Origin: Octopus vulgaris
Lineage: Eukaryota
DNA length: 64,000 bases
Direction of reading: 5' to 3'
NCBI GenBank assembly: GCA_951406725.2
Contig: OX597829.1
Location: forward strand, 45,198,001 to 45,262,000
The notes beneath the pieces were generated by a model. The model did no database searches. It was not told where the DNA came from and saw nothing but the letters and a program-made list of their open reading frames with translations. How positions within the stretch are numbered: the stretch's first letter is position 1; the number at the start of each line of letters is the position of its first letter. Both the position numbers and the translations under genes were made by a program. Shown piece after piece: positions 6,865 through 28,507 of the stretch.

Positions 6865-7309
6865 GTTTCATATGGGCTGAATGCAAACAACTTTGGGAAG
6901 AAGGGCTAAAAGCATATGTTCGCCAATGGTGGAATTGGCTTGATTTTATAATGTTATCACTTTACCTGGCTACATTCTCATTACGAATCGTGGCTTATAT
7001 TCAAGTAGAATCAGGGAAATATGGACCCGATAACATGCAAAGGAAAAACTGGCCAGTCAATGACCCAACACTTATATCTGAAGGACTTTTTGCAGTAGCA
7101 AATGTTTTTAGTTTTGCTCGAATTATATTTTTGTTTCAAGCGAATCAACACCTCGGGCCATTACAAATATCATTAGGTTGCATGTTGATAGATATTGCAA
7201 AGTTTTTATTTATATTCTTCTTGGTTTTAACGTCATTTGCGTGTGGTCTAAATCAGCTATATTGGTACTACAACCCAAGCAATAACCCAGGAAATCGAGC
7301 ATTTTCAAC
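6865..7309 (+). CDS. TRPC-family channel, internal exon (S2-S5 and start of the pore loop)
   Basis: Poly-pyrimidine tract and CAG acceptor (6862-6864), GTAAGT donor at 7310. Reads [93 protein letters not shown], which are hallmark TRPC motifs. Ends in phase 2 (AC). Confidence 0.95.
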
Positions 7310-17325: not shown

Positions 17326-17802
17326 TATTATTATCATCATTATTATTTTTTTTTTATCATTTCATTATAGGTAACCCCCCCCATACCTTATGTCTGTCTC
17401 TGTATTGTCTCCCTCATCCTTCACCCTTGTAGCAAATAAATGAAATCATTATTATTGTTTTTATTTTAACTTAGAGTTTGGTTGAAACTCTTGTGCAGCC
17501 AAAAAGGTGCTCTCAATCTCTTTTTTTCAATCCTCCTTTCTTCAGCCAATCCCACCTATGCTTTCCAGCAACTTTGGTTATGGTTACATGGAATTGTGTA
17601 ATCACTTGTGGCATACTGCTTCTTCTTCATGTCCCTTTTGTACTTCTTCCTTTGTTTTTCCCTTTTTCCCTGCTTTCAAAATGCCCTCATCCCTAACTGA
17701 CACGAACAAGTTTTCCTTACTTTGGGATAGCTAATTCAGTAAGTTCCCAAGTTCAATACATATGCAGTCTTCTACACTTATCAGTCCCCTTCCTCTATTT
17801 GC

Positions 17803-17880
17803 CTTCTTCTTCTTCTTCTTCTTCTTCTTCTTCTTCTTCTTCTTCTTCTTCTTCTTCTTCTTCTTCTTCTTCTTCTTCTT
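17803..17880. repeat. (CTT)n microsatellite upstream of the pore exon acceptor
   Basis: Directly visible pure trinucleotide run. Confidence 0.95.
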
Positions 17881-17959: not shown

Positions 17960-18155
17960 GCTTGGGGCTAGTTATGGAACTCTGTTCTGGTCGTTGTTTA
18001 GCTTAACTCAGCTAAAAGATATCAAGATTGAAGATGGACCGAAATTTACAGAATTAATGGGCGAAATCTTGTTCATGGCATACCATGCCATGGCTATCAT
18101 TGTTTTAATCAATATGTTAATTGCTATGATGTCAAATTCATATCAAGAAATTGAG
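17960..18155 (+). CDS. TRPC-family channel, pore helix and S6 exon
   Basis: TTTTTTCAG acceptor, GTAAGT donor at 18156. The first G completes AC|G (Thr) from the previous exon. Reads LGASYGTLFWSLFSLTQL..FTELMGEILFMAYHAMAIIVLINMLIAMMSNSYQEIE, with the LFW pore motif and the S6 LNMLIAMM-type motif. Confidence 0.95.
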
Positions 18156-18252
18156 GTAAGTCGACTTTGCTGTCAGTTTTTGTATGGTGGTGGTGGTGAT
18201 GGTAGTGGTGGTGATGGTGTTGGTGGTGGCTGTAGCATTGTTGACAACAGTT

Positions 18253-18707
18253 ATGTCATTGCCATCACCACCATCATCATCATCATTATCATCATCAACA
18301 TAACTATCACCATCATCATCAATAACATAACTATCACCATCATCATCAACATAATCGTCACCATCATCAACATAACCATCACCATCATCATCAACATAAC
18401 CATCACATCATCATCAACATAAATATCACCATCATCACCAACATAACCATCACCATCATCATCAACATAACCATTGTCATAGCCATTAGCAACATCAACA
18501 TAAATTTCACCATCAACCATTACCATCATCAACATCAACAACCATCATCATCATTATCATCATGAACATCACCATAACCATTAGCAACATCAACATAACT
18601 ATCACCATCATCATCATCAACATAACCATCACCATCATCAACATAACCATCATCATCATCAACATAACCATCACCATCATCAACATCATCATCATCTACA
18701 TCACCAT
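18253..18707. repeat. (CAT/CAC/CAA)-rich minisatellite built from AACATAACCATCACCATCATCATC-like units
   Basis: Directly visible. It gives spurious poly-I/T and poly-M ORFs. Confidence 0.9.
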
Positions 18708-20502: not shown

Positions 20503-20715
20503 AATCATGCTGATATGGAGTGGAAGTTTGCCCGATCCAAACTTTGGATGGGCTATTTTGATGAAGGTTCAACATTACCACCTCCATTCAACCTAATAAT
20601 AAGTCCTAAATCTGTATATTATTTTCTACGCATCATTAAACAACTTATTTGTCGATGTGTAACACACAACAAGCATCGTAAACCAAGAAGGAAATCTGTT
20701 GAAGGCACTATCAAG
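20503..20715 (+). CDS. TRPC-family channel, TRP-box exon
   Basis: Long pyrimidine tract and AAG acceptor, GTACGG donor at 20716, phase 0/0. Reads [37 protein letters not shown]..., containing TRP box EWKFAR and LPPPFN. Confidence 0.95.
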
Positions 20716-28444: not shown

Positions 28445-28507
28445 CGGCCCACATACAACGGGAAAAAAATGTGCGCCCCTCCTAAAATTATTCAGCTACA
28501 CTACCAG
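28445..28507 (+). CDS. TRPC-family channel, 63-nt exon leading into the C-terminal rib/coiled-coil helix
   Basis: GTTTCTGTTCACAG acceptor and CAG|GTGAGT donor. 21 open codons in phase 0/0: RPTYNGKKMCAPPKIIQLHYQ. The final YQ matches the start of the TRPC YQxVMxxLVxRY helix. Confidence 0.75.

Follow-up and report, generated by a model that had tools for sequence, protein, structure and literature searches.

A likely coleoid RNA recoding site at a TRPC selectivity-filter residue that evolution has also toggled in genomes

The Q/R site of GluA2 is a pore-loop residue which sets permeation and is recoded nearly completely by A-to-I editing, a process that needs an intronic complementary sequence. 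In coleoid cephalopods, Kv channels are the classic recoding cases. According to the available parts of two studies (PMC8382921, PMC6881472), recoding of coleoid neural ion channels concerns editable adenosines in conserved channel exons, includes changes of the S>G class, affects several sites per transcript and involves local exonic structure. As defined in the same parts by Jiang and Zhang (PMC6881472) and Shoshan et al. (PMC8382921), editing is restorative if the edited residue was genome-encoded at an ancestral cephalopod or mollusc node.

Among TRPC channels, the filter constriction of TRPC4 is formed by Gly577 (available part of PMC6079076). Human TRPC1 has the sequence FSLAH where TRPC5 has FGL, and heteromers containing TRPC1 have a narrower filter (available parts of PMC12789093 and PMC13385394). 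In the same parts, TRPC1 is also described with a two-residue insertion and with L601 as the constricting residue, so that the effect of its Ser alone is not isolated. TRP-1 of C. elegans (P34586), which falls into one clade with the octopus gene described here, likewise carries Ser at the filter-Gly position. The worm and octopus proteins are 54% identical over 767 aligned residues. The worm gene reportedly has a proprioceptive role (PMC6010301).

Here, we describe the corresponding position in Octopus vulgaris, located in a window of 64,000 nucleotides (the whole stretch of DNA that was analysed, to which all positions refer). With the known coleoid sites it shares the editable A in a conserved channel exon, the S>G class, the presence of several candidate sites per transcript and a local exonic structure. 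It differs in sitting on the TRPC filter constriction, and its editing is deduced from variants at the protein level. The parallel to GluA2, A-to-I recoding of a pore-loop residue, applies if our functional guess for the octopus channel holds; in contrast to GluA2, the octopus edit would be partial at best, an intronic partner was not found, and many animals live with the residue in its unedited form. With TRPC1 the gene has the Ser in common, but it is without such an insertion and scores 536 bits with TRPC1 versus 720 bits with TRPC5. From sequence comparisons, we consider it somewhat more probable than not that coleoid ADAR partly edits the codon of a Ser, widely shared among molluscs, at the filter of this TRP-1-type TRPC channel, giving a mix of Ser and Gly with predicted differences in geometry and ion flow.

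The pore exon, its gene and its local RNA structure

Four exons of one TRPC gene are located on the + strand of the window, which holds only residues ~424-729 of the protein. They comprise the following features:

6865..7309, + strand: upstream exon encoding S2-S5; its AGC Ser codon at 7278-7280 is the counterpart of S563G in a related cephalopod
17960..18155, + strand: TRPC pore helix-filter-S6 exon of the C. elegans TRP-1 clade, bounded by AG/GT, in frame from 17961
18000..18002, + strand: AGC codon that places Ser586 (numbering of the octopus model; 587 in the related cephalopod) where the filter Gly is expected, with A18000 as candidate A-to-I site
17997..18016, + strand: 7-bp hairpin with a 6-nt loop, TTTAGCT (17997-18003) with AGCTAAA (18010-18016); A18000 pairs with U18013
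17987..18043, + strand: possible extended imperfect helix around the hairpin, including GGTC (17989-17992) with GACC (18037-18040), context-dependent
20503..20715, + strand: TRP-box exon; ATA Ile at 20596-20598 is the counterpart of I670V, and CGA Arg at 20653-20655 matches R689G
28445..28507, + strand: 63-nt cassette exon (21 aa) after the TRP box, included in some isoforms and skipped in others in Octopus and the related cephalopod

The protein has the ankyrin repeats, six-TM ion-transport domain, LFW pore motif and TRP box of the TRPC family and matches TRPC5 with an E-value of 2e-215. In a FastTree phylogeny of 51 hand-picked proteins (midpoint root, SH-like support without bootstrap), the gene groups with C. 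elegans TRP-1 (P34586) with an SH-like support of 100, apart from the TRPC4/TRP-gamma and TRPC7-like sequences, and is on this grouping assigned as the orthologue of the worm gene. As the 21-residue cassette is used or skipped in both Octopus and the related cephalopod, its alternative splicing is conserved.

The pore exon is translated as LGASYGTLFWSLFSLTQL...MLIAMMSNSYQEIE with the motif ...TLFWSLF-S-LTQ..., in which Ser586 is aligned with the Gly of LFWxxFGL in the solved TRPC3 and TRPC6 chains. Sequence, translation and this alignment bear out the initial annotation, which had reported a pore motif LFWSLF-S-L with AGC at 18000-18002 and a U-A-G context at A18000; the base 5′ of the codon is indeed T. 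A18000 is a genomic A, and its change to G turns Ser into Gly. In a predicted monomer of low overall confidence (pTM 0.42), which cannot separate Ser from Gly function, Ser586 is located in the loop directly after pore helix H573-583. The exon is identical in the genome models of Octopus vulgaris/sinensis, O. bimaculoides and Argonauta. It is single-copy in the octopus genome (one full match among seven matches), and a second copy was not found within the 64-kb window. The other TRPC pore exons of this genome carry Gly in five out of five parsed, with one further match left unparsed. Long simple repeats flank the exon, TTC upstream (17800-17880) as well as GGT and CAT/CAA-type repeats downstream (18190-18700); such repeats are ordinary for octopus introns.

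UAG is the preferred triplet of ADAR, which favours longer duplexes. The perfect 7-bp exonic stem with a 6-nt loop that had been proposed to hold A18000 is present, and the pairing of A18000 with U18013 reaches p 0.94-1.0 in all five folding contexts; the spliced context contained a surplus intronic base at the 3′ exon junction, 155 nt away from A18000. Only 3.5-4.4% of 20,000 synonymous recodings have a perfect stem of at least 7 bp over the site (a post hoc test), and three comparable stems occur in the 919 nt of the four exons. The outer helix proposed along with the stem has the GGTC and GACC sequences as written and forms in the fold of 17985-18045, but it is missing from the whole-exon MFE structure. 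With regard to stability, the fold of 17985-18045 is not unusual (z -0.89, 41 of 200 shuffles as good), nor is that of the whole exon (z -0.17 versus shuffles). Among intronic sequences, none stood out as editing-complementary; the best duplex reaches -23.7 kcal/mol, an ordinary value given that other exon segments yield -17.6 to -32.6. Folding of the exon with its flanks, a check suggested in the initial annotation, thus kept A18000 paired throughout and gave an energy no better than that of shuffles and no intronic partner. The 7-bp stem is mildly suggestive of editing. The UAG context is nearly uninformative; with Phe as the residue in front, it is found in 50-68% of synonymous recodings. 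As candidate ADAR substrate we propose this hairpin together with the imperfect helix that extends it.

Transcript variants in a related cephalopod and possible editing in the octopus

Six Logan proteins from the two nearest clusters (P0002, P0071, P0003 and P0081-P0083) are encoded by contigs of 3.2-3.5 kb with open frames of 900-921 aa. Since contigs of this size contain the full frame and the introns of the gene measure kilobases, these proteins represent spliced transcripts. In the FastTree phylogeny they are sister to a group of Octopus and Argonauta; they are 97.2% identical to the octopus protein over 780 residues and originate from another cephalopod, probably a coleoid. No differences occur among their first 308 residues, which also agree with a Logan fragment that looks unspliced (P0080), and so they derive from one species or very close ones; a second fragment (P0079) differs at one residue, and thus the cluster includes more than one species or allele. 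Over 921 residues, the six proteins differ by one skipped 21-residue exon and at four sites, with no other kind of change:

S563G: Gly in two of the six proteins
S587G, the site of A18000: Gly in four of the six
I670V: Val in four of the six
R689G: Gly in three of the six

All six Octopus and Argonauta genome models covering the region have S, S, I and R at these sites, and therefore each of the four variants departs from the octopus residue in the way expected of A>G. With 9-18% of single-base missense changes qualifying as A>G-type, the chance of four such changes out of four is 8e-5 to 1e-3, and for the three sites not chosen beforehand it is ~1e-3 to 5e-3 (the same fractions cubed). S>G, I>V and R>G all belong to the usual change classes of coleoid editomes; for O. 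vulgaris, the available part of the PMC8382921 supplement includes 1341 S>G sites in AGC codons. The variants are seen at the protein level, where SNPs could also produce them; from their direction and class, we infer edits rather than SNPs, and we regard editing of this gene in the related cephalopod as highly probable. Contigs tend to retain the commoner allele, and Gly in four of the six therefore points to strong editing in the samples they came from. The mosaic combinations of variants (four-gamete pattern) in these proteins were rejected as evidence of editing, since assembly loses phase.

It is improbable that editing occurs nowhere and that the S/G, I/V and R/G differences represent alleles or differences between close species. 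The Logan records are protein sequences, the repeated genomic Ser/Gly switches in the clade make a G allele plausible, and the deviating residue of P0079 implies more than one species or allele in the cluster, all of which would suit such an origin. However, it would leave the A>G direction of four out of four differences in 921 residues, away from the octopus residue, to chance (8e-5 to 1e-3), as well as the lack of any other type of change among the six proteins. A>G-type variation in transcripts of a relative was thus found at the orthologous site (S587G) together with three other A>G-type sites, again at the protein level. This indirectly backs recoding at what the initial annotation had called a candidate restorative A-to-I site; the restorative part of that proposal did not stand.

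The octopus codons at 563 (AGC), 587 (AGC) and 670 (ATA) are editable by A>G. At the R689 position the octopus has CGA (20653-20655), in which A>G cannot give Gly; judged from this codon, sites are gained and lost between lineages. Window positions 7278 (S563G, outer turret before the pore helix) and 20596 (I670V, after the TRP box) are further candidate recoding sites and vary in the related cephalopod.

In a search of sequencing runs, 20 of the 24 entries listed contain sampled words of the pore exon, all of them in contigs and none from a run listed as RNA, and they were given no weight as evidence. The records of four of these runs compared with the window, under a filter that may drop records, cover a flanking repeat and nothing over the pore exon, which says nothing for or against editing in this octopus. 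The 13+2 cluster members include no transcript-derived Octopus protein with Gly, but their Octopus entries are all from outside Logan, and so this absence is uninformative. As a base rate, ~9-16% of AGC codons in four coleoids are listed as S>G sites, a rough ratio of two tables in the available part of PMC8382921 whose denominators may not match. Conservation of editing from the relative to this octopus is, in our own judgement, fairly likely; taken together with the high probability of editing in the relative, this results in even chances or slightly better for editing at the site in this octopus.

It is conceivable, albeit unlikely, that strong recoding is confined to the other cephalopod lineage and that octopus Ser586 is the inherited molluscan residue, unedited or edited in traces. 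This would agree with editing data that come from the relative alone, with the site turnover at R689, with the tolerance of genome-encoded Ser in 12 of 19 other molluscs and with the unremarkable stem energy. On the other hand, the octopus codon is an editable AGC in UAG context within a stem lacking in 96% of synonymous recodings, and the exon protein is 97% identical between both lineages. We retain partial editing in coleoids including the octopus as the preferred reading.

A published editing catalogue may well list the site already, without comment. A matching row for the gene is absent from the supplements of PMC4384741, PMC9068888, PMC8382921, PMC5850729 and PMC7192619, which are small or without per-site tables and so provide no evidence of absence. 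In the literature searched, nothing specific on TRPC or TRP-pore editing in cephalopods was found, and the available part of a 2025 squid proteomics preprint yielded no TRP-channel passage. A 2026 survey of cephalopod TRP channels mentions RNA editing once in its available part, where the octopus accessions of this gene were not found among 60 of the 76 TRPC entries of its Table 1 (PMC13402157).

Serine and glycine at the filter position in other animals

The filter residue was counted over 32 hand-chosen proteins, with Nautilus and Aplysia not among them. Ser is found in 12 of 19 non-cephalopod molluscs, including a chiton, all seven gastropods and four of 11 bivalves (Potamilus, Sinanodonta, Mya, Mactra), and Gly in the other seven, six pteriomorph bivalves and Dreissena. 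Nine out of ten non-mollusc outgroups have Gly and one, Owenia, has Ser. Among the homologues of the first search, 61 of 69 carry Gly. C. elegans TRP-1 and most of the nematode orthologues listed have Ser, and Trichuris has Gly. A genomic copy from squid or cuttlefish, or any molluscan Ser codon, was found neither among the best 120 of 315 matches of a search with a shorter protein nor among the best 80 of 358 of a metagenome scan. Further residues occur at this position in TRPC-like proteins, namely Lys in three Branchiostoma proteins and Asn, Ala, Gln and Asp elsewhere (P0180, P0182, P0187, P0157, P0184; L057, L059, L084, L086).

With the accepted mollusc tree as a guide, and judged by eye, a root state of Ser in molluscs requires about three changes and one of Gly about 4-5. 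From this distribution, Ser appears to have arisen on the mollusc stem and to have reverted at least two times in bivalves, with Gly as the older, pre-molluscan state. The nematode Ser seems to be independently derived, because Trichuris, arthropods and deuterostomes have Gly. Within the TRP-1 clade, Ser and Gly have been switched genomically several times.

The initial annotation had expected editing to restore a lost Gly, or else a lineage-specific filter substitution, and had named an ancestral Ser in orthologues of non-editing molluscs as one observation that would speak against it. The alignment of mollusc orthologues proposed there revealed Ser to be widespread outside cephalopods. Neither restoration nor lineage specificity is supported, as Ser occurs in 12 of the 19 orthologues from non-cephalopod molluscs (the chiton, seven of seven gastropods and four bivalves) as well as in the worm protein TRP-1. 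That a cephalopod ancestor lost an essential Gly by G>A and that near-complete, harm-permitting editing repairs this loss is thus very improbable. The prevalence of Gly in the first search (61/69), in the non-mollusc outgroups (9/10) and among the six contigs (4/6) would fit such a repair, but Ser is shared by the chiton, the gastropods (7/7), bivalves (4/11), Owenia and the C. elegans TRP-1 group. Human TRPC1 has it as well (FSLAH, available part of PMC12789093), and the tree needs fewer changes (~3 versus ~4-5) if molluscs started out with Ser. From the distribution in the chiton, the seven gastropods and the four of 11 bivalves, read by eye, the residue encoded at the ancestral cephalopod/mollusc node was probably Ser rather than Gly. 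Since Ser appears to predate cephalopods, the S>G edit is likely diversifying, not restorative, under the definitions of Jiang and Zhang and of Shoshan et al. It would bring back a Gly that was last fixed in ancestors older than the cephalopod lineage, or outside this lineage. An author correction to the paper by Jiang and Zhang is said to exist.

Proposed mechanism and other routes to pore diversity

In the proposed mechanism of partial editing, ADAR would act on the exonic hairpin and its imperfect extension in the pore exon and convert AGC to IGC in part of the mRNA pool, so that Ser is replaced by Gly. Channel tetramers would then hold zero to four Gly at the filter ring, and a filter with Ser, because of the side chain and a less flexible backbone, is predicted to be narrower or differently shaped. 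Thereby, the edit would reopen the Gly state that pteriomorph bivalves and Dreissena regained by mutation. Ser works unedited in many animals, and therefore editing is not needed for function. A literature search for mutants of the filter Gly listed one structural paper.

A more far-reaching reading, which we put forward tentatively, is that of conserved high-level coleoid recoding on the sole filter-constricting residue, with graded Ser/Gly tetramers that might differ in Ca2+ permeability or conductance by tissue or temperature. As an equally tentative part of it, other animals might obtain pore diversity in this family via genomic Ser/Gly switches or duplicated alternative pore exons.

Alternative pore exons were observed elsewhere. 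Another TRPC gene of the octopus genome, with a TRP-gamma-like pore, has three tandem diverged pore-S6 exon copies within 2 kb, all with AG/GT ends and in the same phase, which probably represent mutually exclusive alternative pores:

L002, G000:C13:21579781-21579954: TRP-gamma-like pore-S6 exon copy
L003, G000:C13:21581301-21581474: TRP-gamma-like pore-S6 exon copy
L004, G000:C13:21581555-21581728: TRP-gamma-like pore-S6 exon copy

Of 23 metagenome loci (L008-L030) with the exon of an annelid-like TRP-1 orthologue, 19 also contain another, diverged pore-S6 exon no more than ~600 bases away; the two loci inspected show splice-like ends. The TRP-1 clade would seem to diversify its pore by exon duplication in annelid-like animals where cephalopods may use editing.

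Coleoids have tens of thousands of recoding sites, of which few offer an obvious mechanistic handle; this candidate hits the constriction of a TRPC filter. Both the Ser and the Gly state are natural in the genomes of other animals, and the variants are comparable by simple patch clamp. The site also provides a test case for the debate on restorative versus adaptive editing, since it looks restorative when compared with vertebrates and insects but appears diversifying when compared with molluscs. Whether or not the site is edited, the Ser/Gly switches that recur in the TRP-1 clade could be used to study the filter Ser by itself; in TRPC1, it is accompanied by an insertion.
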